Positions 5,197 to 47,950 of a stretch of DNA of 64,000 nucleotides are shown here, piece by piece (positions within the stretch are counted from its first letter, which is position 1; every line of letters begins with the position of its first letter). A model generated the notes under the pieces. The model did no database searches. It saw nothing but the letters and a program-made list of their open reading frames with translations, and had not been told where the DNA came from. Both the position numbers and the translations under genes were made by a program. Source of the stretch: a virus; the IMG/VR virus record IMGVR_UViG_3300030422_000020. One strand, 5' to 3'.

Positions 5197-6393
5197 TTAT
5201 AATAGGAAGTCTTCTGCTTTTGCTACCTCTTCATTCAGTTTTGTCTCTAACAAGTGGGTATATTTCAAAGTGGTAGCATAACTAGTATGCCCCATGATTC
5301 TTTGTATAAACACTGGATCTAATTTCTTTTCAAAACACCTAGTAGCAAACGTATGTCTAAACGCATGTGGATAAATGTGTTCCATTTTTTCTGGCGCTCT
5401 GCCTTCTATTGCCGCATTATATTCTTCTTTTTCGTTGATGTTCTTCAATACCTTTTCAATGTTATGGGATAATGCATATCTTGTTACTGGCGAGCCAAGT
5501 GTTGTCGTAAAAACTAAATCGCCTAACTCTGGTCGCAATCTCCACCTACTTCCAAGCTTTGCTTTGTATTGGTCTTGTTTTACCTTCCAATCTTTAAATA
5601 GTTCTCCTACATTCCCGAAGAATGGAATAGTTCTGTAGCTATTGCTCGTCTTTGGTGTTGTGAGGTATTCCATTTTCTTACCGTCAACATAACCAATGCT
5701 CAGGCTTCTTTGTATTCTGATTGTTTTGTTTTGCCAGTTTATATCTTGCCATTGAAGACCGCTGAATTCGCCTATTCTCATGCCAGTAAGTAATAAGATT
5801 TGGTAAGCTTCATTATAATACTCATGTTCTATTTCATCTAAAAACATCTTCATTTCACGAGAACTCAAAACCCTACGTTCTTGAACAGCTTCATTCTCGT
5901 CTTTTATTGCTATATTAATACACGGATTAGACTTAATGATTTGATTCATAACCGCTATATCCAAACACTCTCTGAGTACGCCAAGTGCTTCTCTCAGCGT
6001 TCTTGCCTTGAATTTACTAAGTAATTCGTTTGTTGTATCTTGCATATTCATATGAGATATATTCTCTATCTTTTTATCTCCTATTGCAGCAATGTATGTG
6101 TTGGATACTTTTCTATGATATGCCCTTTTGGACACTTCCGACTTCAATGCTGGCTTTTTGTATTTTTCAAACCACTCTTCAAACCATTCAGACAGTGTAA
6201 GGTTTGGTCTAATATTCTTTTCGTCTCTTAGAATCTTAATTTTTTCTTCTTCAAAACGTTTCTTTAATGTTGGTAGATGCATATCATAAAGACACAGCTT
6301 AACACCGTTAATCATACACCGCGCTTCAAAACGTTTATCTTTTCGTTGACTGTATCCGCGCCCCAAGTCTTTGCCTTTAAGGTCTTTTCCCAT
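5197..6393 (-). CDS. int: tyrosine integrase/recombinase (398 aa)
   Basis: C-terminal catalytic motifs: LTGMRIGEFSGLQWQDI (box I), HAFRHTFATRC (H-x-x-R) and GHTSYATTLKYTHL (the catalytic Tyr region). Confidence 0.85.
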   Translation of the reverse strand: MGKDLKGKDLGRGYSQRKDKRFEARCMINGVKLCLYDMHLPTLKKRFEEEKIKILRDEKNIRPNLTLSEWFEEWFEKYKKPALKSEVSKRAYHRKVSNTYIAAIGDKKIENISHMNMQDTTNELLSKFKARTLREALGVLRECLDIAVMNQIIKSNPCINIAIKDENEAVQERRVLSSREMKMFLDEIEHEYYNEAYQILLLTGMRIGEFSGLQWQDINWQNKTIRIQRSLSIGYVDGKKMEYLTTPKTSNSYRTIPFFGNVGELFKDWKVKQDQYKAKLGSRWRLRPELGDLVFTTTLGSPVTRYALSHNIEKVLKNINEKEEYNAAIEGRAPEKMEHIYPHAFRHTFATRCFEKKLDPVFIQRIMGHTSYATTLKYTHLLETKLNEEVAKAEDFLL

Positions 6394-9964: not shown

Positions 9965-10534
9965 TTAATTATTATACAATACAATCTTATTTGTTGCTAT
10001 AGTTTTTTGAACATTTATTACACGCTGATTTGAACTTCCACACCACTTTAAAGATATGTCGTTAAGCTCGTCAACGTATCTGCCATCGACAACTACATCA
10101 CACATAGAGACAATATTCTTTCGAGCTGTTTTAATTTTGACAGTCTTAAAGAAGTCCAATGGGTTTAAATCATTTAACATGGTTGGTTTAAAGATTTGCT
10201 CCCACGTAAATCCAGTATACAACCAGATTTTCTTATCTGGAAACTTGGCTTTAATATCTTTAATGAGAGAAAGAACATCATATACATTCTCAGGCTCAAG
10301 TGGTTCTCCACCAAGGATGGTTACTCTGGCAACAAACGGCTGCGCAACAAGCTTAAGAAACTCTTCTTTAGTCTGCTTAGTCCATTCTTTGCCACCAGTA
10401 AATCCCCATGTTTCACTGTTAAAACAGTTCTTACAATGGGCGCGGCACCCTTGTACAAAAAGAGAAACGCCGATGCCGCTGCCATTCGAAATATCCATTT
10501 TACGAATTAAAGAGTATCTTATCTTAATCACCAT
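9965..10534 (-). CDS. nrdG: anaerobic ribonucleotide reductase activating protein (radical SAM)
   Basis: DISNGSGIGVSLFVQGCRAHCKNCFNSETW (CxxxCxxC) and VVDGRYVDELNDISLKWCGSSNQ closely parallel E. coli NrdG (VDGKFVQDLKDPSLIWRGSSNQ). Confidence 0.85.
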   Translation of the reverse strand: MVIKIRYSLIRKMDISNGSGIGVSLFVQGCRAHCKNCFNSETWGFTGGKEWTKQTKEEFLKLVAQPFVARVTILGGEPLEPENVYDVLSLIKDIKAKFPDKKIWLYTGFTWEQIFKPTMLNDLNPLDFFKTVKIKTARKNIVSMCDVVVDGRYVDELNDISLKWCGSSNQRVINVQKTIATNKIVLYNN

Positions 10535-10618
10535 CTTCCACTGGCATATCGTCTACATGAAGAACGCGCTCTTTAATTTCCTGAGTTCTGCCAGCGTTCC
10601 AAAAGTTACTTCCAATGT
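10524..10618 (-). CDS. nrdD: nrdD exon 2: last 31 codons plus stop, overlapping the nrdG start by 11 nt
   Basis: After the intron's terminal G, exon 2 begins AC|ATT GGA AGT AAC TTT TGG AAC GCT GGC... Joined to exon 1 (..TGT GGA T) this gives ..RRTCG-YIGSNFWNAGRTQEIKERVLHVDDMPVEDGD*. Compare E. coli NrdD RRVCG-YLGSPDARPFNAGKQEEVKRRVKH. Confidence 0.75.
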
Positions 10619-10883
10619 CCTTACTACCCTCGGTTTCCCGATATTTATTAGGGGAGTAGACTATACAATCTAATCGTTATAATGATTAGTCGGTATTATA
10701 GTCGTTGAAGGTTTCTCCTATTTAGGAGACTTCCCTGCGTTTGATTACCCAATTCTTAACGATGTTACCATACCAAGTCCGTTACTACTCGCCGCAATTA
10801 TATTACTATAATTGTTTGGTTGTTAAGACTCTAAGGGCTTCCCCGCAATTTAACCGATTTAACGTGGACTACATTTTACTTCA
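10619..10883 (-). ncRNA. group I self-splicing intron (265 nt, no ORF) interrupting nrdD
   Basis: P1: exon GUGGAU pairs with intron GUCCAC, with the U.G wobble at the 5' splice site. P10: intron AAUGU immediately 5' of the P1 guide pairs with the exon-2 start ACAUU. Core elements occur in canonical order: P (AAAUUGCGGGGAAGCCC), Q (AAUCAAACGCAGGGAAG), R (CUUCAACGACUAUAA) and S (AGAUUGUAUAGUCUAC). P7 is GACUA/UAGUC. The intron ends in G (..GUAGUAAGG). Confidence 0.8.
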
Positions 10884-13065
10884 ATCCACATGTTCTGCGT
10901 GCCACGCTCATTTTATCATGGTCACGGTTGCCGCAGTTGGGGCATTCCCAAACAAGCTCGCCAGTATCCTTATCCTCTACAATAAGGATCTCCTTGTCCC
11001 AACCGCATACCATGCAATAATCGCTCTTTGTATTCAGCTCAGCATACATAATATTGTCATAGATAAACTGAATAATCTGAATCACTGCATCGATATTGTT
11101 TGTTAGATTTGGCACCTCAACATAGCTAATGGCACCGCCCTGAGAAAGCTTCTGGAACTTAGACTCGATAGCAAGCTTGCTAAACGCATCAATGTGTTCG
11201 GTGACATTAACATGATAAGAGTTAGTAATATAATCCTTATCAGTAATGCCCTCGATTACACCAAAGCGCTTCTTCAAACACTTGGCAAACTTGTATGTGG
11301 TAGATTCAATTGGGCTACCATACGGACTGTAATCAATGTTTTCTGCTTCCTTCCATTGATTGCATTTGTCGGTAAGTGCCTGCATTACCTCAAGTCCAAA
11401 CTTCTCACCAATATCACCGTCTGTATGGCTATGACCAGTCATATATTTTACGCACTCATAAAGACCAGCATATCCAAGTGAAATTGTTGAGTATCCGTTG
11501 CAAAGAAGCTTATCAATCTTCTCACCCTTATCCAAGCGAGCGAAAGCGCCATGTTGCCAAAGGATAGGTGCTACATCAGATGGAGTACCCATGAGCCTAT
11601 TGTGACGCGCCTGTAGTGCCTTGTGGCAAAGTTCAGTGCGCTCATCAAAAAGCTTCCAGAAGTTATCAAAGTCGCCGCCAGACGATAGCGCAACATCAGG
11701 AAGGTTGATTGTCACAACACCTTGATTGAAGCGACCATAATACTTTGGTTTGCCGTCATAGTTCTTAGCCTTTGCAATGTTATCATATCCATTACCACTG
11801 CGGTCTGGGGTAAGGAAGCTTCGGCATCCCATGCAAGGATAGCAATCGCCATTGCCAACCTTTTCGCCTTTAGATAGCTTATATTCCTTCATCATCTTCT
11901 CAGAGATATAATCAGGAACCATACGCTTCGCAGTACACTTGGCGGCAAGCTTGGTGAGATAGAAATACTTATCGCCCTCATGTACGTTATCATCCTCAAG
12001 GACATAAAGCAGCTTCGGGAATGCAGGTGTTACCCATACACCCTTCTCATTCTTAACCCCCTGAATGCGCTGATTAAGAACCTCTTCGATGATTAGGGCA
12101 AGATCGTTCTTGGTCTGCTCATCTTTTGCTTCATTGAGATACATGTTCACGGAAAGGAACGGAGCCTGCCCATTGGTAGTCATAAGCGTTACGACCTGAT
12201 ACTGAATAGTCTGAACGCCACGCCTAATCTCGTCCTTTACCATAGACTCTACAATATCATTGTAATTGACAATCTCGTCATCTGTCTTAGGCTCATGTCC
12301 GACAAACTCGACATATGTATCCATTGCTTGCTTCTTAATCTTCTGTCGGCTCACGTCAACAAAAGGAGCAAGATGTGTAAGGCTAATAGTCTGACCACCA
12401 TACTGGCTTGATGCAACCTGAGCAATAATCTGGGTGGCGATATTGCAGGCGGTGGCAAAGCTATGTGGCTTCTCAATCATGACGTTAGAGATAACAGTGC
12501 CATTCTGAAGCATGTCCTCTAGGTTGATTAGACAGCAGTTATTAAGTGCATTCTGTCCAAAATAATCCATATCATGAAAATGAATGATGCCAGCTTCATG
12601 TGCTTCAACAACATCCTCTGGCAGCAAGAAGCGCTTGGAGATATCCTCACTTACAACGCCAGCCATATAATCACGTTGAGTTGTGACAAGACTTGCGTTC
12701 TTATTTGAATTCTCGTTATTCCAATAGTCGCTTTCTCCACTTAGCAGCTCCATAATTGTTTCATCTGTTGTATTGACCTCACGAATAATCTTGCGCTTAT
12801 AACGGTACTCAACGTAGTGAGAAGCCACATCCTTGCGAGAGGTTGCCATAAGCTTATTCACAACCATGTCTTGAATATCCTCAACGGACATTTTCTCTTT
12901 CTTGATATTTGCGATTTCATTTGAAATCTTACTTGCAATCTTATTTGCGTCTTCGGTAACATCGCCATCGACTTCAATAAATGCTTTCTTAATAGCGTTT
13001 GAAATCTTGTTCTTGTCAAAAGCGTCTTCTCGTCTATTTCGCTTAATAACAAACATCATACGCAT
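10884..13065 (-). CDS. nrdD: anaerobic ribonucleoside-triphosphate reductase, exon 1 (727 codons + 1 nt)
   Basis: N-terminal ATP cone (VIKRNRREDAFDKNKISNAIKKAF). Zn ribbon CMVC-x19-CPNC. Glycyl-radical motif RRTCG sits 16 residues after the last Cys, the same spacing I recall for T4 NrdD (C564 to G580). The track ORF reads on into the intron (..CG-LK*). Confidence 0.9.
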
Positions 13066-38077: not shown

Positions 38078-39520
38078 TTAGTGTGCGGCCTTATCTGCTT
38101 CATGTAGAATCATAACACATTGCATGAAATAATCGCCCCACAATTTTAGATATTTATTATACATTTTTTCGTTGTTGTCTCTCTCCCATACGTATGGCTT
38201 CATATGATTTGAGATAAGGGCTGAAACAAATAATGCGTTAATACCAACAGGATAATCAAAGAATAAACTGTCATACGCTCCAACATGTTCGTGCGAATAA
38301 TATCTACAACGATCAATTGGTAATATTGGCGATATTTTTTTCTTAAAAACTTTATTCTCTGTAATATACGCCTTATTGTTTATTATTCTTGATACCGTTG
38401 CCGCATCTACACCAAACATATCTCCAATCTTTTTATTGGTATAACATGCATGTTCTTTAACAAATTTAATTGACTCAACTTCACCAAATGAAAGTTTACT
38501 TTGCCATTTATCAAAACCAGAAACGTTTCTATTTGGATTTGTTTGAAATGCATGATTTTGATTTTGGCTTCTTGTACACCACTCTAAGTTTTTATAAAAA
38601 TTATTTGATTTATTTGAATCAATATGATTAACATCAAGTTTCTTATATTTTTTTAAACACTCTGGTATGTCCAAAAAATGTTCTGCTACAAGTCTGTGTA
38701 TATAACAGCGCTTCTTTCTTGTTTCGCTCCCCAATGTAACGCTTAGATACCCATGTCCATTATCTCTGCCCTTTAATACCTTATTTGTTTTAATATTTTT
38801 TACATTGCCATAATTTGATATAGCATATAAATCCTCAAAATCATGTATTGGAACATAAATCTCTACGTCTTTTTCCATCCTTGTATATGGCTTTCCAACA
38901 TCGTGCAATAGTCCAGCATAATAAAGGGTATCGTTATCTTTAAGTTTGTTAGCAACAGAAACACAATGCTCACCAAGAGTTAATGTATGATGTGGATTAT
39001 CTTGGTCGTAATCCATATAACTATTAATCCACTCGTCAATATCTTTTCTTTTATCGTTCCAGTGATGAATCTCAATGTCATCCCAACCTTCAAACCAATA
39101 AGGAGTTTCCCATTGTTTATACATGCGCTCAATGACATAATCTGGTACGTACCTGTCTCTATTCGCATTATTCCTTAGACATTGCTCATATGGAGTAGCG
39201 GCAATGATACATTCTTTACGACAAGGGATGCGGTTTAGCTCTTGTAGGAAAGCAACGCGCCTTTTAGAGCTTAAATTGCAAGCATCATAGATAACATTAT
39301 TACCTTCTTTTAATGCCGTCTTGATACGCTTATGCAATTCCACAAACAGCTCATGGTTATGAGTTTGGTCGTTGATATCTAGATAAAGTTCTTCTCTTAA
39401 TGCATCTGAGCTGAATACAATATAATTATTTTCCATTGCTAGATTATAAGCAATGGTGGATTTACCACTTGCGGGTAAACCCACCATACACACTAGCACT
39501 GGCTTTGTGCTAGTGTCCAT
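38078..39520 (-). CDS. polynucleotide kinase (P-loop) + HD phosphohydrolase with an in-frame HNH endonuclease and HTH module
   Basis: Walker A GLPASGKSTIA. HD motifs NPHHTLTLGEH and LLHDVGKP, with later YSHEHVGAY and ILHEADK. Between them sit a NUMOD4-like block (ISNYGNVKNIKTNKVL), an HNH block (IHRLVAEHF...VNHIDSNKSNNFYKNLEWCTRSQNQNHA) and an HTH (KKIGDMFGVDAATVSRIINNKAY). Confidence 0.65.
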   Translation of the reverse strand: MDTSTKPVLVCMVGLPASGKSTIAYNLAMENNYIVFSSDALREELYLDINDQTHNHELFVELHKRIKTALKEGNNVIYDACNLSSKRRVAFLQELNRIPCRKECIIAATPYEQCLRNNANRDRYVPDYVIERMYKQWETPYWFEGWDDIEIHHWNDKRKDIDEWINSYMDYDQDNPHHTLTLGEHCVSVANKLKDNDTLYYAGLLHDVGKPYTRMEKDVEIYVPIHDFEDLYAISNYGNVKNIKTNKVLKGRDNGHGYLSVTLGSETRKKRCYIHRLVAEHFLDIPECLKKYKKLDVNHIDSNKSNNFYKNLEWCTRSQNQNHAFQTNPNRNVSGFDKWQSKLSFGEVESIKFVKEHACYTNKKIGDMFGVDAATVSRIINNKAYITENKVFKKKISPILPIDRCRYYSHEHVGAYDSLFFDYPVGINALFVSALISNHMKPYVWERDNNEKMYNKYLKLWGDYFMQCVMILHEADKAAH

Positions 39521-40729
39521 TTATTCACCAGCTTTAAGCAAGAATTTGCGGGAAACGTTCTTGAAACTGCGCTGTCCATCCTGACTACGATACACAAAGC
39601 CCTCGCGTAGACACTTCTTATTGATTACACTCTTGCCATCAGCAGACTGCTTGAACTCCTCAAAGTCATCAGCATCGGGCAAGATATAGTTATCATCAAT
39701 AATAGGCACGAATGGAATATCGTACTCGGCTAGAATCTTCTTTGCTTCGACAGAACCAAGGCGCTCTCCGTCAAAGATTAAATTGAAGGCGGCAAATCGG
39801 CGCTCATCAAGCTTGTACTTGTTGCCCTGTACGGACTCACCATACGTCTCACCCTGTAGTACAACATGCTTATGGTTGCGCTTCTTTGCAATGTCCTTAA
39901 GAGCATCCTCGACATTGTATTTGAATGCCATTTCCCAGTAAACGTTTCCGATGCCAGACATATCAGAAACAAAGTTCTTCTGATCTGCATCCATCTGGCG
40001 AACATTACGTGAACACACACCGAAATCAGGCTTACGACCAGTCAAATCAAGGAAGAATGTAGTCGAAGTGCCATCAATCTTCTCGGTCACGACATAAGGA
40101 TTCTTATCCTCAAGCATGAACATGACATTCTCAATGCGGTCTTCATCCGTCTTCTTAATCCACACAGGCCAGTTCTTAGGATTATCCTTCTTGCGACCAA
40201 AGAAAACGAACAGCAACTTGCGACCCCATGCACGCTTCATCAGCCACTTCCACCACTTCTTCTTTGCGAGCTTGGTATTACGTGCGCACATATTATTGTA
40301 CTTGGCATTGGGATTAGAATTAGCCTTACGAGCATTATCCTCGGCTACATAATACTTAATACCAAGCAGATTTGTCACGTCCTCGTGGATAGCATACTCC
40401 TTATTATCTGGAAGAATGCTCATCGGAAGAAGCAAACCCTGCGAAACTACATTAAACTTTCCGAGCTTATAGGTCTTTACCTTAAACTTCTTTGGGCGCA
40501 AAAACTCAGACCACTCTGTCTCTGGTAGCAAAGAATCAATCTCAAAGAAGACAGCCATGTCGCCAGCATTAAACTCATGCTTGCGAATAATTACGTTCCA
40601 ACCTCCAACATGAGCAAGCTCAATGTTATCAGCCTTTTCAATTGGCGTGATACTATCAACTGTTACAGTATATGCAAGCATACGCTCGCCGTTTTTGTCT
40701 AGCATATCGAACCTTTCTACTATGCTCAA
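39521..40729 (-). CDS. putative ATP-dependent RNA ligase
   Basis: Nucleotidyltransferase motif I VVTEKIDGTSTTFF (KxDG), a later VVLQGETYGESVQG block, and adjacency to the Pnk/HD gene. Confidence 0.5.
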   Translation of the reverse strand: MSIVERFDMLDKNGERMLAYTVTVDSITPIEKADNIELAHVGGWNVIIRKHEFNAGDMAVFFEIDSLLPETEWSEFLRPKKFKVKTYKLGKFNVVSQGLLLPMSILPDNKEYAIHEDVTNLLGIKYYVAEDNARKANSNPNAKYNNMCARNTKLAKKKWWKWLMKRAWGRKLLFVFFGRKKDNPKNWPVWIKKTDEDRIENVMFMLEDKNPYVVTEKIDGTSTTFFLDLTGRKPDFGVCSRNVRQMDADQKNFVSDMSGIGNVYWEMAFKYNVEDALKDIAKKRNHKHVVLQGETYGESVQGNKYKLDERRFAAFNLIFDGERLGSVEAKKILAEYDIPFVPIIDDNYILPDADDFEEFKQSADGKSVINKKCLREGFVYRSQDGQRSFKNVSRKFLLKAGE

Positions 40730-44190: not shown

Positions 44191-45213
44191 TTACTTGCCA
44201 GTGTTAATCATTGGAGTTGAGCCATTGGGAACCACGACAAGATTGCCTTCCTTGCCAATATCCTTTAGCGCTTCGATATAATGCTGCTGCAACACCTGCT
44301 CATTAAGGCTCTGTGCAAGAACGGCGTTTGCATCTGCTTCACCCTGAGCTTCAATCTTCTTAGTCTCAGCCTGAACCTTGGCAGTCTCCTGCTCATTCTG
44401 CGCCTTCTGCTTTGCCACCTCAGCTGCCTGAGCCTGTGAATAGCTATCGGTAATAGACTCAGGATAGCGTACATCCTGTACGCTTACCTGCTCAACAGTA
44501 AGGCCAATCTTATTCCACTTCTTAGTCAGCGCATCCTGAACAGCCTTGGTAAACTGCGAGCGATCAGTCAGCATGGTAACAGTATCAAACTTACCAGAAA
44601 CCTCACGGGTAACAGCGCGAACATCATTGGAAATATACTTCTCAACAAAGCTTTCCTGCGTGCCATACTCAGAATAAAGGCTAAGCGCTGAATCTGGATT
44701 CAAGCTATAGTTGACCTGAATATCCACGTTGGCACTGGCACCAGACTTATCATTGATTGATACCTGCTTACCCTCATATGAGCCACCATCAACCTTGTAA
44801 TCGGTATCGCCATAGAAATTGATAAGATTGTTGCGTACATCATACGTAATAACATCTTGCCAAGGCATCTTGATATGGAAACCAGCTTCAGAAGTTGAAT
44901 CGGCAAGAGAACCACCGAGATTACGAATTACGCAAACCTCACCAGTGTCCTGTGTATAGATGCAAGAACCACCGATAAATGCAAAGGCAAAGACAATACA
45001 TACTACTGCAACGCCACGAGCGCAAGTGTGCGCAAATTTTACAGTCTTAATATCCGTCTCGTTTTTAATATATGACTTCCCAAGAATATTGGTGTCCTCG
45101 ACAGGTTCGGGAATCTTTGTGCGAATATCAAAGACAATGAATGGAATTGCAATAAGCAATGCAATAATTCCGACAACAAACGTTATCATACCAACCCTTT
45201 CTACGTACAACAT
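44191..45213 (-). CDS. SPFH/band-7 (HflK/C-stomatin-like) membrane protein
   Basis: N-terminal TM (FVVGIIALLIAIPFIVF). The SPFH core is followed by a coiled-coil (AQAAEVAKQKAQNEQETAKVQAETKKIEAQGEADANAVLAQ). Confidence 0.7.
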   Translation of the reverse strand: MLYVERVGMITFVVGIIALLIAIPFIVFDIRTKIPEPVEDTNILGKSYIKNETDIKTVKFAHTCARGVAVVCIVFAFAFIGGSCIYTQDTGEVCVIRNLGGSLADSTSEAGFHIKMPWQDVITYDVRNNLINFYGDTDYKVDGGSYEGKQVSINDKSGASANVDIQVNYSLNPDSALSLYSEYGTQESFVEKYISNDVRAVTREVSGKFDTVTMLTDRSQFTKAVQDALTKKWNKIGLTVEQVSVQDVRYPESITDSYSQAQAAEVAKQKAQNEQETAKVQAETKKIEAQGEADANAVLAQSLNEQVLQQHYIEALKDIGKEGNLVVVPNGSTPMINTGK

Positions 45214-45360
45214 TCAAACAAAAAACAGGATGCGTATTCACGGCACATCCAGAGGATCTGTTTTTACGGTGTTTCAGCTCACCAATTACTCCGTGAAAGC
45301 ACTTGCTTATCTCCTAGCAAGAAGGCTTGCTATCCTCTCGAATAGCGTGCGGCGTTGCCT

Positions 45361-45395
45361 ATTCTACCGCAAAAGATTTTTTTCGGGAAAATCTT
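45361..45395 (-). terminator. hairpin AAGATTTT-tttcggg-AAAATCTT distal to the tRNA array
   Basis: Palindrome downstream (on the minus strand) of the last tRNA. Confidence 0.3.
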
Positions 45396-45427
45396 AAAAA
45401 CCACTGCCAATAGGGGCAGGTATTATA

Positions 45428-45519
45428 TGGCGGGGCAACTGGCATTCGAAGCCAATACTTGATGAACAAGTACGTTCTGATTAGCAGTCAGACCTAACTC
45501 CCCGTTAGTTGTCTGCCCC
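45428..45519 (-). tRNA. tRNA-Ser(GCU), type II with long variable arm
   Basis: Acceptor GGGGCAG/TTGCCCC with an encoded CCA. Anticodon arm TCTGA-CTGCTAA-TCAGA. Variable hairpin ACTTG-TTCAT-CAAGT. T arm TTGGC-TTCGAAT-GCCAG. Confidence 0.6.
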
Positions 45520-45731
45520 GAAGGTGGGGTGCGTTACCAACTACACCACATGTCTTTTGTAAAATAACATAATCATAAGTACATGGCTACTTATTTTCCG
45601 TCTATACTGAGACACGTCTGGATTCGAACCAGAGACAGTTTCGCCATTATCATCCATGAGAATCTGGCTTTATCGTGATTATATCCACGCCCCCATTGTT
45701 ATATAATGTCAACTATGACAAGAAAAAATCA

Positions 45732-45807
45732 TGGAGCCGATGACAGGACTTGAACCTGCAACAGACTGATTACAAATCAGTTACTCTTCCAATTGAGTCA
45801 CATCGGC
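45732..45807 (-). tRNA. tRNA-Thr(UGU)
   Basis: GCCGATG tg ACTC aattggaa GAGT a ACTGA-TTTGTAA-TCAGT ctgtt GCAGG-TTCAAGT-CCTGT CATCGGC t CCA. Confidence 0.8.
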
Positions 45808-45826
45808 AATTGTACAATTGATTGTG

Positions 45827-45900
45827 TGCGCCATGTAGGATTCGAACCTACGGCCTACAGATTAGAAGTCTGTTACTCTATCCAGCTGAGTTAATGGCGC
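45827..45900 (-). tRNA. tRNA-Arg(UCU)
   Basis: GCGCCAT / ATGGCGC acceptor. Anticodon arm ACAGA-CTTCTAA-TCTGT. T arm GTAGG-TTCGAAT-CCTAC. Confidence 0.8.
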
Positions 45901-45951
45901 ACACAATCAATTGTTATATATAAAAGATATTATACCATATCTTGATATATC

Positions 45952-46036
45952 TGGTAGGGAAGAAGGGATTCGAACCCTCACGCTCTATGAGCAAGAGATT
46001 TTAAGTCTCCGATGTCTGCCATTCCATCACTTCCCC
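45952..46036 (-). tRNA. tRNA-Leu(UAA), type II
   Basis: Acceptor GGGGAAG/CTTCCCT + A + CCA. Anticodon arm GGAGA-CTTAAAA-TCTCT. Long variable arm. T arm GAGGG-TTCGAAT-CCCTT. Confidence 0.7.
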
Positions 46037-46042
46037 GAGTTT

Positions 46043-46117
46043 TGGTATCGGCTACGGGAATCGAACCCGTGTTTCCACCTTGAAAGGGTGATGTCCTAAC
46101 CGTTAGACGAAGCCGAC
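46043..46117 (-). tRNA. tRNA-Glu(UUC)
   Basis: Acceptor GTCGGCT/AGCCGAT + A + CCA. Anticodon arm TCACC-CTTTCAA-GGTGG. T arm ACGGG-TTCGATT-CCCGT. Confidence 0.75.
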
Positions 46118-46208
46118 ATTTGGTGCCGCATCTAGGTAACGCTCCTAGCCAGTCATAGACATTGGATTTACAGTCCAACCCTCGTCTTTAAAGGATTACT
46201 GCGGCAAT

Positions 46209-46285
46209 TGGTGGACACAGTAGGATTTGAACCTACGACCTTATGCGTGTAAAGCATCTGCGCTAACCAGCTGCGCCATGCGTCC
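46209..46285 (-). tRNA. tRNA-Val(UAC)
   Basis: Acceptor GGACGCA/TGTGTCC + A + CCA. D arm GCGC-agctggtta-GCGC. Anticodon loop TTTACAC. T arm GTAGG-TTCAAAT-CCTAC. Confidence 0.75.
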
Positions 46286-46286
46286 G

Positions 46287-46362
46287 TGGTGGAGTCGGTG
46301 AGAATCGAACCCACGACCTTGGGATTAAAAGTCCCCTGCTCTTCCGACTGAGCTACGACTCC
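46287..46362 (-). tRNA. tRNA-Lys(UUU)
   Basis: Acceptor GGAGTCG/CGACTCC + A + CCA. D arm GCTC-agtcggaa-GAGC. Anticodon loop CTTTTAA. T arm GTGGG-TTCGATT-CTCAC. Confidence 0.8.
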
Positions 46363-46366
46363 ATTA

Positions 46367-46441
46367 TGGTGGGGGATGAGTGAGTTGAACACTCTTCTAG
46401 AGCTTATAAGGCCCTTGCCCTAACCGTTGTGCGAATCCCCC
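46367..46441 (-). tRNA. tRNA-Ile(UAU) (AUA reader)
   Basis: Acceptor GGGGGAT/ATCCCCC + A + CCA. Anticodon arm AGGGC-CTTATAA-GCTCT. T arm GAGTG-TTCAACT-CACTC. One D-stem mismatch. Confidence 0.6.
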
Positions 46442-46472
46442 ATAGCCATTATAATAGACGGTAACGTTCCAT

Positions 46473-46553
46473 TGGCAGTGGCAAGATTTGAACTTGCATA
46501 CAGGAGCTACCTGTTTTGCCCATTAAAGCATAGCGTATACCGATTTCGCCACA
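46473..46553 (-). pseudogene. tRNA-like element (type II architecture) with a disrupted anticodon arm
   Basis: Good acceptor (GGCGGTG/CACTGCC), T arm GCAAG-TTCAAAT-CTTGC and variable-arm hairpin CAGG-TAGCT-CCTG. No 5-bp anticodon stem can be drawn in ATGCTTTAATGGGCAAAA. Confidence 0.3.
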
Positions 46554-46559
46554 CCGCCA

Positions 46560-47950
46560 AGTCACATTACCGTCTATGGAATATATACTTTTCAAGCATG
46601 GTCTATATGCTCTTATCGAGTACGATGACATCTCAAAAGAAGAGCAAATTGAACGACTACTCGACTCTGGCCTGCCCATTCTGTCGATGACAGATTCTGG
46701 AAATAAATCTGTTCATACCATACAACAACACGCAATGATAATATATACTCCATAGACGGTGGTAGCTTACTAAAGTCCTCACCAGCTACCAGAGGGGTCA
46801 CTTATTTTAAATACCGTCCGCGCTGGCAGACCTTCCAACGCTACCGATTTTACGCAACGGTGTACGCTTAACAGTCCGCTTCCTCCGTTAAGACAAGGGG
46901 TAACATTACGCCGTTACCATGCGCCCAAGACTTGTCAGGTAGCTATCTCCATCGTAAACCTTGGGACTGAGCGTTGACGGAAAATGAAAACGTAAGTCAA
47001 ATAACTCACACGCAAGGAACAACCGTTAAACCAAAACAGAAAGGAGTCAAAACATTTTCCGTCTACGGAATCGTACCGTACCATCTGCGTTAGTGAAATC
47101 AACCAAAAGACTAACACAGAATCGAACCTCGCTTTGTCGGTCAAGCAAACCAACGCGAAAGATTGTCTCAGGCCTTCGCCTTACCTTCATAAAACGTAGT
47201 GGTAATTCGGTAACATAGGAAATGGAGCTGAGACACAGGGAGCGACCCCATATCTTTCCATCCCGACTTTACGTCAATCTATGGCTGGATTGGCTACCAA
47301 CAACTTTCACCCACCATTCAGCATATTAATCTTCTAATACAATCCAACTTTGGGCTACTCGTACTCGCGTCTGGTCTTATAGCTGATTACCAGCATCAAT
47401 TGGACAACTATCTTATGGCACTCCAAGCGATTGGCATAGCTGCCACACTACCCTCTACTTGGTTCAATGGAATATATTCCATATCTATTGCGATAGCAAC
47501 CAGTTAGCGATACCATTTTCTTGCGTTTCATCACAGCGCCGTGTCTGCTCGGTTGAGATTTTCCACCTCTTCTACCAGAAGCCAGTTACCTACATCTGGC
47601 AAAGCCTACCTATGGGGTATCCTCCATAGTGGGACTCCTCGAACACGCCCATGACCACGTGGAGTCGTGAATACACATGGTTGAAACAATCCTTCGCGTT
47701 GATTTCTCAACGCTGATACTCTATGTAAATATCAAGGTGCAACTGGAAACTTCCGTTTCTCTGTGTCAGATATTATAGCATCTAACTTTATCAGTTGCAA
47801 GAACTTTTTTGAACTTTTTCCATCTTCTTTTCTCAAGGTGCTCATCAGATTGATCTGCGATTTGTCCGCGTCTCTTTCTGACATCAACTATATTACATGG
47901 TGCCTATATCTATGTCAACAACTTTTTAGAAAATTTTGAAAACTTTTTTC
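46560..47950. ncRNA. candidate large structured non-coding RNA region (~1.4 kb, ORF-free, GC-elevated) adjacent to the tRNA array
   Basis: No ORF over 72 aa on either strand. Composition is visibly more G+C-rich than the flanks. Long-range complementary segments are present (ACCGTCTATGGA 46569-46580 pairs with TCCATAGACGGT 46749-46760), along with tRNA-T-arm-like GAATCGAACC at 47120. Confidence 0.3.

Follow-up and report, generated by a model that had tools for sequence, protein, structure and literature searches.

Group I introns in phage genes of nucleotide metabolism, nrdD among them, have been known since the work on T4. According to a survey, nrdD is the reductase gene most often split in phages (PMC3653736), and the curators of RNRdb count more than 100 introns in reductase genes, the sites of which are not listed (PMC2795772). 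In the Jug jumbo phages of the human gut, small group I introns of about 206 nucleotides (nt) on average fragment nrdD in 95 of 104 genomes, and metatranscriptome reads indicate that some of these introns are spliced (PMC12880540). Here we analyse nrdD in a 64,000-nt stretch of viral DNA, IMG/VR record IMGVR_UViG_3300030422_000020. We call this whole stretch the window. All coordinates are those of the window unless another sequence is named, and nrdD, its intron and the activase gene nrdG all lie on the minus strand. We conclude with high confidence that what separates the annotated nrdD from nrdG is a compact group I intron without an open reading frame (ORF), which splits the Tyr codon directly after Gly727 of a phage class III NrdD.

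The split nrdD and its predicted splice junction

The unspliced nrdD ORF (13065..10876) encodes 729 amino acids (aa) and has the C-terminus ..SVARRTCGLK*, a stop that the initial annotation of the window had already placed two residues after the glycyl-radical Gly. From there to nrdG, 340 nt follow without a sense-strand ORF. The initial annotation placed a group I intron lacking an endonuclease gene in this gap. The intron (10619..10883, 265 nt) is identified by a match to Rfam family RF00028, by intron-less alleles and by covariation. It has stops in all three frames, and it does indeed contain no endonuclease ORF.

Exon 1 (10884..13065, 2182 nt) was placed from the ORF list, from profiles run on the spliced product and from alignment to T4 NrdD (1h78) and 9d3x. 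It ends in TGT GGA T, the codon of the glycyl-radical residue Gly727 plus the first base of a Tyr codon. Exon 2 (10524..10618, 95 nt including the TAA at 10526-10524), placed by translation and by structure alignment, encodes (Y)IGSNFWNAGRTQEIKERVLHVDDMPVEDGD and aligns with the C-termini of solved NrdD structures. When position 10884 is joined to 10618, the product is 758 aa long and ends ..RRTCGYIGSNFWNAGRTQEIKERVLHVDDMPVEDGD*, with the restored reading ..RRTCG-YIGSNFWNAGRTQEIKERVLH.. across the junction. The predicted ligated RNA corresponds to ..ACAUGUGGAU|ACAUUGGAAG.. (GGAU|ACAUU), and the predicted C-terminal peptide is TCGYIGSNFWNAGR if the message is spliced versus ..TCGLK if it is not.

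The spliced protein is a full-length NrdD, as had been expected. Its match to NCBIfam NF006732 scores 894.8 bits (cut-off 657) and covers positions 2-707 of 712, and TIGR02487 is matched along its entire length (1-581 of 581, 427.5 bits). An end-to-end alignment with NrdD profiles requires the C-terminal segment, which only the spliced protein has. Aligned to solved structures, the spliced protein extends to the final residues of both 9d3x (E=4.7e-116) and T4 NrdD 1h78 (E=2.5e-104). RRTCG-YIGS of the window stands opposite RRTCA-YLGN, residues 576-584 of 1h78. Hence Gly727 corresponds to residue 580 of T4 NrdD (Ala in the 1h78 crystal form), which we take to be the radical glycine site. The true NrdD of the window phage has 758 aa, not 729.

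Downstream, nrdG (9965..10534, 189 aa; TIGR02491, 166.7 bits) starts with the ATG at 10534-10532. The TAA of the spliced nrdD (10526-10524) overlaps codons 3-4 of nrdG, again in agreement with the initial annotation, and the end of exon 2 thus covers the nrdG start.

Intron-less alleles define the junction exactly. We fetched 80 IMG/VR loci that encode relatives of the exon-1 C-terminus; 73 of them are uninterrupted and 7 are interrupted. Seven contigs (L009-L015; L numbers are our handles for the loci compared) are 98-100% identical to the window in the C-terminal segment, a 102-aa query on which relatedness was measured, and all seven lack the intron. Six of them have the sequence predicted for the product of the window, ..RRTCG|YIGSNFWNAGRTQEIKERVLHVDDMPVEDG, save for one or two substitutions. 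The seventh, L011, has a different C-terminal end, ..DDMPYNG*. The target sequence of the L009 type is ..CGCACCTGCGGATATATTGGAAG... Exon 2 of the window differs from intron-less L009 at 13 nt, which amount to 12 synonymous codon changes and no non-synonymous one. Purifying selection thus acts on the frame that the proposed junction creates.

Deposited phage genomes give the same junction. In tblastn searches with the spliced protein, the match extends to residue 751 in three Enterocloster bolteae phages, CB457P2, CB473P2 and PMBT24, and stops at residue 727 in CB457P1, CB473P1, CB473P3 and the human-faecal contig MT835556. CB457P2 reads TGT GGG TAT ATA GGA ACT versus TGT GGG T[293 nt]AT ATA GGA ACT in CB457P1. 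The 293-nt homologue in CB457P1 is thus inserted at the same nucleotide as the window intron. The junction proposed in the initial annotation matches both sets of alleles. The public record of CB457P1 ends nrdD at this point without annotating an intron, and so carries the same truncated-nrdD error.

Around the insertion site, the window and L009 are less alike than further out. Nucleotide identity falls to 87% in the final 30 nt of exon 1 and to 84% in the first 50 nt of exon 2, versus 96-100% slightly further away, which puts the elevated divergence within some 50 nt of the insertion. By comparison, L006, which carries the intron together with an endonuclease gene, is 100% identical to the window in the flanks. 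The flank divergence would fit co-conversion during homing, or divergence of the target site.

Structure and covariation of the intron core

The covariance model and the pairings agree on a group I fold. RF00028 aligns over its full length (model 1-253) to 10887..10636, with E=2e-8 for the region and E=3.7e-7 for the whole 64-kb window, and this is the only intron match in the window. The full-length alignment is in line with the initial annotation. At 41.4 bits, however, it falls short of 50, the curated gathering score, and counts under the rule of Rfam itself as suggestive but insufficient.

Both ends of the intron are marked by guide pairings. P1 is formed by the exon bases GUGGAU and the first intron base, U+1 (5' strand, 10883..10889; 5' splice site after U10884), with the internal guide A-GUCCAC (10864..10870), which follows from sequence and covariation and which RNAalifold recovers independently. 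Within it, GUGGAU (10889-10884) is complementary to GUCCAC (10869-10864), with the wobble U10884.G10869 at the splice site. The P10 guide AAUGU (10871..10875) pairs with the first five bases of exon 2, ACAUU (10618-10614). The initial annotation had both pairings right, and it had the P10 guide directly 5' of the P1 guide, which is true to within one base, since A10870 separates the two and pairs with U+1. An in-frame UAA (10876..10878), 8 nt into the intron, would end translation of unspliced RNA before the catalytic core; early in-frame stops are present in the homologous introns too.

The core elements of P, Q, R and S type follow in the correct order, and the last intron base is the terminal (omega) G at 10619, both as first read. 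The 5' strand of P3, UCGGU (10853..10857), has its partner ACCGA at 10694-10690. The 5' strand of P4, UGCGGG (the P element, 10842..10847), pairs with UC-AAA-CGCA at 10744-10736 (Q) and is also found in the minimum free energy (MFE) fold. P5 (CCC/GGG) with its P5a/P5b extension occupies 10748..10837, according to covariation and the MFE fold. P6 (GG/CC) and the P6a hairpin occupy 10710..10734, where covariation is joined by RNAalifold, which pairs 218-221/244-247 with compensatory changes. The 5' strand of P7, GACUAUA (the R element region, 10697..10703), pairs with UAUAGUC at 10665-10659 (S). P7 is the guanosine-binding helix; it interleaves with P3 in the pseudoknot characteristic of group I introns. 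The P8 hairpin CUAAUC-AUUAUAAC-GAUUAG (10670..10689) is the position at which sibling phages carry an HNH ORF. Finally, closing pairs of P9.0 type (CCC/GGG) surround P9, UCGG-GAAA-CCGA with a GNRA loop (10627..10654), as covariation and folds indicate.

These helices covary across the family. We wrote the structure from the window sequence and applied it to 20 distinct ORF-less members, each with 9 nt of either exon. Standard pairs occur in 97.9% of the 820 cells, versus 33-42% when the 3' partners are slid by 1-3 columns. Changes on both sides are found in 18 of 42 pairs (0-3 in the slid controls), and none of 500 shuffles reached the observed covariation score.

P1 is paired in 100% of cases and its U.G is invariant (20/20). 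In eight sequences an exon change from A to G is matched by a guide change from U to C, so that the covariation of P1 sets the third base of the Gly codon (A/G) against the guide (U/C); in L091, the exon sequence UGCGGCU is matched by the guide GGCCGC. P10 is 92.9% paired, with three of five pairs changed on both sides. It tracks synonymous choices in exon 2: AAUGU/ACAUU, CAAUAU/AUAUUG in L101 and CCGAUAU/AUAUCGG in L003. P3 is 100% paired and covaries at all five pairs (UCGGU/ACCGA, CCAUC/GGUGG, UUGCU/AGCAA, UUAAU/AUUAA and others). P5 is also 100% paired, and two of its three pairs covary. P7 is 98.6% paired; two adjacent pairs of seven switch jointly, and its variants are GACUAUA/UAUAGUC versus GAACAUA/UAUGUUC in the L003 group and GAUCAU/AUGAUC in L089. 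P9.0 and P9 are 100% paired, with CUAG-GAAA-CUAG in L001 and L085. RNAalifold, which cannot predict pseudoknots, independently returns P1, P6a, P7, P9.0 and the GNRA-capped P9.

Several observations weigh against a functional intron. Not only does the window intron score below the Rfam gathering score, but its relatives do as well, with 26-44 bits on RF00028. In a pooled Rfam search of L001-L003, the intron-bearing loci L001 and L003 have no RF00028 match at E<=0.01; we read this as a sensitivity limit of the general model and not as evidence against an intron. The MFE z-score is modest (-1.98), and the MFE fold recovers P4, P5/P5a/P5b, P6a, P7, P8 and P9. The 3' strand of P4 carries an AAA bulge versus a canonical Q element in L001. 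Splicing of nrdD is inferred from the sequence. And with no endonuclease within the intron, mobility of the window copy is conjecture.

Combined, however, the covariation, the junction comparisons and the covariance-model match settle the group I identity of the element. Because the members of the family score below the gathering threshold, automatic pipelines miss them.

Subgroup IA2, the T4/Twort type, has a P2 hairpin and extra P7.1/P7.2 helices between P7 and the 3' strand of P3. The window intron has no room for P2, with 6 nt between P1 and P3, or for P7.1/P7.2, with 2 nt between the 5' strand of P7 and the 3' strand of P3. Hence, we do not file it under IA2.

The intron family and the use of the site

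The window intron belongs to a family found mostly at this site. We scanned IMG/VR with the core motif GTTAAAYYNNNNAAAYTGCGGG (J1/3-P3-J3/4-P4), which was derived from the first relatives. Of the 30 loci returned, 27 lie directly after RR(T/S)CG of nrdD. All 33 introns with a locatable 3' end are preceded by U, end in G and are followed by an exon 2 of the form AY-ATH/YTN-GGN. Among the introns located, length ranges from 265 to 1201 nt, and the long ones are those that bear ORFs.

In some sibling phages the intron comes with an endonuclease gene. L006, L007 and L008 share both the intron and its site with the window and have an insert of 424 nt (425 nt in L007) in the P8 loop. The L006 intron is identical to that of the window over its first 204 and last 57 nt, that is, over 261 of 265 nt. 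The insert encodes a 131-aa protein with an HNH_3 domain (E=1.8e-10); a NUMOD4 match is weaker (E=5e-4) and under the Pfam cut-off. Long ORF-bearing versions are also found in L071/L086, L100 and L091/L093. In L172, a Clostridia metagenome-assembled genome (MAG), the intron measures 1080 nt and has an ORF that, by eye, appears LAGLIDADG-like. In the L003/L020 lineage the intron itself lacks an ORF, and an HNH_3 ORF follows just downstream of exon 2.

In the window intron (10883-10619) we find no homing endonuclease and no ORF. Since siblings hold the same ribozyme with an HNH gene and others are intron-less, the window copy appears to be the endonuclease-free form of a mobile intron. It may have been inherited vertically, or it may have been mobilised in trans during co-infection. 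The only related HNH sequence within the window lies 28 kb away, inside another gene.

Among relatives that are 98-100% identical in the 102-aa C-terminal segment, intron-less alleles, alleles with intron and HNH gene, and alleles with another intron coexist. The other intron is found in L005 (IMG/VR 3300045988_107970, 1807-2785), whose exon-1 C-terminal segment is 100% identical to that of the window at the protein level. It is a different group I-like intron, one base upstream and directly after the Gly codon GGT, with its own guide (UUGUGGU/GCUACAA), different P3 and P4, and a 248-aa HNH_3 ORF. Its 3' end is nearly identical to the P9 region of the window intron, pointing to recombination between the two. 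Within one small gut-phage population, the stages of a homing cycle occur side by side at a single site: empty, occupied by the intron either with or without its endonuclease gene, and, one base away, occupied by a second intron.

Bacterial chromosomes use the site too. We scanned one genome per species (596 Gb) with an 18-position core-motif pattern. Seven of the 92 loci found (6 distinct) are nrdD introns; we rejected the others as apparent chance matches at this pattern length and database size. Introns at the same site are present in Clostridium paraputrificum NCTC11833, in a Clostridiaceae isolate, in two more Clostridium genomes and in Clostridia MAGs. They are 275-282 nt long, apart from the ORF-bearing version of 1080 nt. 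The nrdD of C. paraputrificum NCTC11833 (L185 3272-6195, NZ_UAWH01000014.1) is interrupted by a homologous 278-nt intron at the same nucleotide, and its ORF stops with ..RRTCGLTI*. L151, L191, L130/L195 and L172 resemble it. The nrdD-nrdG pair of C. paraputrificum is part of a contig of 1.38 Mb, where it is flanked by membrane-protein and phosphoesterase-like genes and not by phage genes. The site is thus occupied in cellular nrdD too.

Occupation of the site is rare in sequenced phage isolates. Of the deposited phage records that match an 81-aa query spanning the junction, 2449 of 2462 are contiguous across it. Among the matches listed, T4-like phages do not have the site occupied. The HNH-bearing siblings, the reuse of the site in phages and Clostridium chromosomes, and the long record of introns in phage nrdD all go beyond what the initial annotation contained.

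Several related elements lie at other positions. In L003 (MT835556), a 92-aa HNH_3 ORF stands between exon 2 and nrdG (5540-5818); stop codons break the frame upstream of it, and hence it looks like a decaying free-standing endonuclease. The nrdD of the same contig (2001-5003) has an in-frame intein-like insertion of about 280 aa after ..HFHDADYFAQHMHNC. In the intron-less L011 (IMG/VR 3300045988_106228, about 1900-2500), a GIY-YIG-like ORF (by eye: ..GKKYIGK..YFGSGKLI..) follows just downstream of nrdD, in the position where nrdG directly follows in the window. L088, L095 and L111 from IMG/VR have introns of the family in other genes, where exon sequences GUGGAU or GCGGAU fit the guide; the contexts are ..IIYDVVD and ..AIIVVD (GUGGAU) and a Toprim-like ..ICTDAD (GCGGAU). 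L088 has three RF00028 matches in 13.5 kb.

The related HNH sequence of the window is an in-frame segment of a 480-aa ORF (38078-39520, minus strand), which by eye has a P-loop kinase-like N-terminus and HD-type motifs. The segment is 34-38% identical to the HNH proteins of the nrdD introns (tblastn E=2e-11). The neighbouring ORF (39521-40729, minus strand) resembles an RNA ligase, and there is no Rfam intron match at 38078-40729. Other RNAs of the window lie further along on the same strand. Rfam finds a cluster of eight transfer RNAs (45735-46558 and 46897-47083), just upstream of which lies a full-length ROOL RNA (RF03087, 47151-47704; 293.3 bits, gathering 99.1). A weak RAGATH-36-like match beside the cluster is below threshold (35.7 bits, gathering 70). 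In Enterocloster phage CB457P2 (L002), a skipping-rope RNA is found downstream of nrdG (RF02924, 4596-4675, minus strand; 65.5 bits, gathering 36.7). CB457P1 (OP172753) reportedly has its tape-measure gene divided between two ORFs by an unrelated ORF of 157 aa (PMC11035940), which may be another mobile element in this phage.

Splicing, its alternatives and known systems

The pairings rest on sequence and covariation, and for the chemistry of splicing we rely on what is established about group I introns. The end of exon 1 (GUGGAU) in the nrdD-nrdG pre-mRNA would pair with the guide GUCCAC to form P1 with its U.G. A free guanosine nucleotide bound in P7 would then attack after U10884. P10 (AAUGU) would align exon 2, and the terminal G10619 would move into the G site. 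Ligation of the exons would restore TAC (Tyr) and a C-terminus of 31 residues that a functional glycyl-radical domain requires. On unspliced RNA, ribosomes would halt at the UAA 8 nt into the intron. Because the stop of the spliced nrdD overlaps the nrdG start, translation of nrdG is probably coupled to the spliced message.

The gap could also be read without any intron, as intergenic DNA behind an NrdD that truly ends ..CGLK, with the YIGSNFWNAGR frame being coincidental or a separate peptide. The public annotation of the CB457P1 homologue does stop at the same place. Yet ahead of ..HVDDM exon 2 offers no start codon, uninterrupted alleles join both parts exactly, NrdD profiles need the C-terminal segment for an end-to-end alignment, and the structural covariation is strong. 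The comparative data already contradict this explanation, and we consider it almost certainly wrong. If there is an intron, it might be a decayed relic that has lost splicing, which would leave nrdD a pseudogene or NrdD a truncated, inactive protein ending CGLK. The missing endonuclease ORF, the Rfam score under the gathering threshold and the AAA bulge in P4 are what such decay might look like. However, all core pairings are intact, and 261 of 265 nt are base for base those of the endonuclease-carrying copy in L006. Exon 2 and nrdG are intact as well, with exon 2 diverging from the intron-less allele only synonymously. The same architecture is kept in the chromosomal nrdD of C. paraputrificum, and the loss of nrdD would be costly for an anaerobe. 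A dead relic is therefore very unlikely.

A real intron could do more than splice itself out. If splicing were conditional on translation, on guanosine supply or on a helper protein, then it would gate the production of radical-competent NrdD and of the coupled NrdG. The stop codon 8 nt inside the intron and the overlap of nrdD and nrdG would suit such a gate, a guanosine nucleotide is by established knowledge the cofactor of the reaction, and splicing of the T4 introns has been reported to depend on translation and growth state (Sandegren and Sjoberg 2007, as listed in PMC3653736). On the other hand, no feature of the sequence demands regulation, and close relatives manage without the intron, which fits a neutral parasite better than a regulator. 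A conserved motif is also the kind of insertion site that homing endonucleases prefer (PMC2814812). Overall, we find a regulatory gate unlikely.

A wider form of this idea starts from the site itself. At least two group I introns, one base apart and with HNH or LAGLIDADG-like endonucleases, use the Gly|Tyr junction. The junction might be a homing hot spot of phages and chromosomes at which splicing ties active reductase to translation and nucleotide status. If so, the radical-bearing C-terminus and the overlapping nrdG start would be made from spliced RNA only, and the unspliced product would be cut two residues after the glycine, the residue at which oxygen has been reported to cleave the activated enzyme. 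Splicing would consume a guanosine nucleotide, and the intron would be more than a passenger. We regard this combined proposal as distinctly unlikely. The polymorphic intron family at this site offers a compact natural system in which to follow intron gain, endonuclease loss and exchange between phage and host, with the same site being used in bacterial chromosomes.

How does this intron compare with those already described? The nrdD (sunY) intron of T4 measures 1033 nt and contains the GIY-YIG gene I-TevII, in contrast to 265 nt without an ORF in the window. The relatives of the window intron carry HNH genes or, in one case, a LAGLIDADG-like gene, unlike the GIY-YIG gene of T4. The position of the I-TevII ORF (44836-45612) puts the T4 3' splice site 348-433 codons before the stop, far from Gly580. 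The window intron sits one base past the Gly codon and thus at a different site. Similarity searches reported no DNA similarity of the window intron to T4-like phages. Lactococcus phage 949 has an ORF-less 'non-coding intron' that splits nrdD beside nrdG, as in the window (PMC3653736). Its 314-nt gap, however, follows the first 417 codons, and its glycyl-radical part is continuous into nrdG. We therefore rejected the two published phage nrdD introns that could be located, T4 and 949, as occupants of the site, since they lie elsewhere in the gene. The Jug phages differ in lineage and in their hosts, Bacteroides and Phocaeicola, and have several insertion sites per gene.

By sequence, the window intron also resembles introns of Staphylococcus, Listeria, Enterococcus and Bacillus phages. 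Their 3' core (P8'-P7'-P9) is mostly 90-99% identical (a few 87%) to that of the window intron over about 45-65 nt, and identity is about 70% over 150-190 nt. Because of these matches in the 3' core, we assign the window intron to this broad phage pool. Such introns of Herelleviridae type (Twort/K-like, Listeria, Enterococcus, SPO1-like) are likewise small, interrupt essential genes and often come with HNH genes. They interrupt other genes (lysin, DNA polymerase, terminase, class Ib nrdE/nrdF) and have other guides. The Twort introns are of subgroup IA2 with P2 and P7.1/P7.2, features that are absent from the window intron. Herelleviridae-type introns also adjoin catalytically important residues in reductases, judging by the Twort nrdE case cited in PMC3653736.

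Our searches of the open-access literature, the coverage of which is incomplete, turned up no paper on an intron at the codon of the NrdD glycyl radical, and the one paper found on CB457P1 does not contain the word intron. As far as we have seen, this position has not previously been described as an intron site, and the element itself, unannotated so far, is of the ordinary phage group I kind. It is useful for annotation and as an example of the homing cycle, but it reveals no new kind of element or mechanism and will not surprise a specialist. It is another case of reductase genes attracting introns at their most conserved, catalytic codons.

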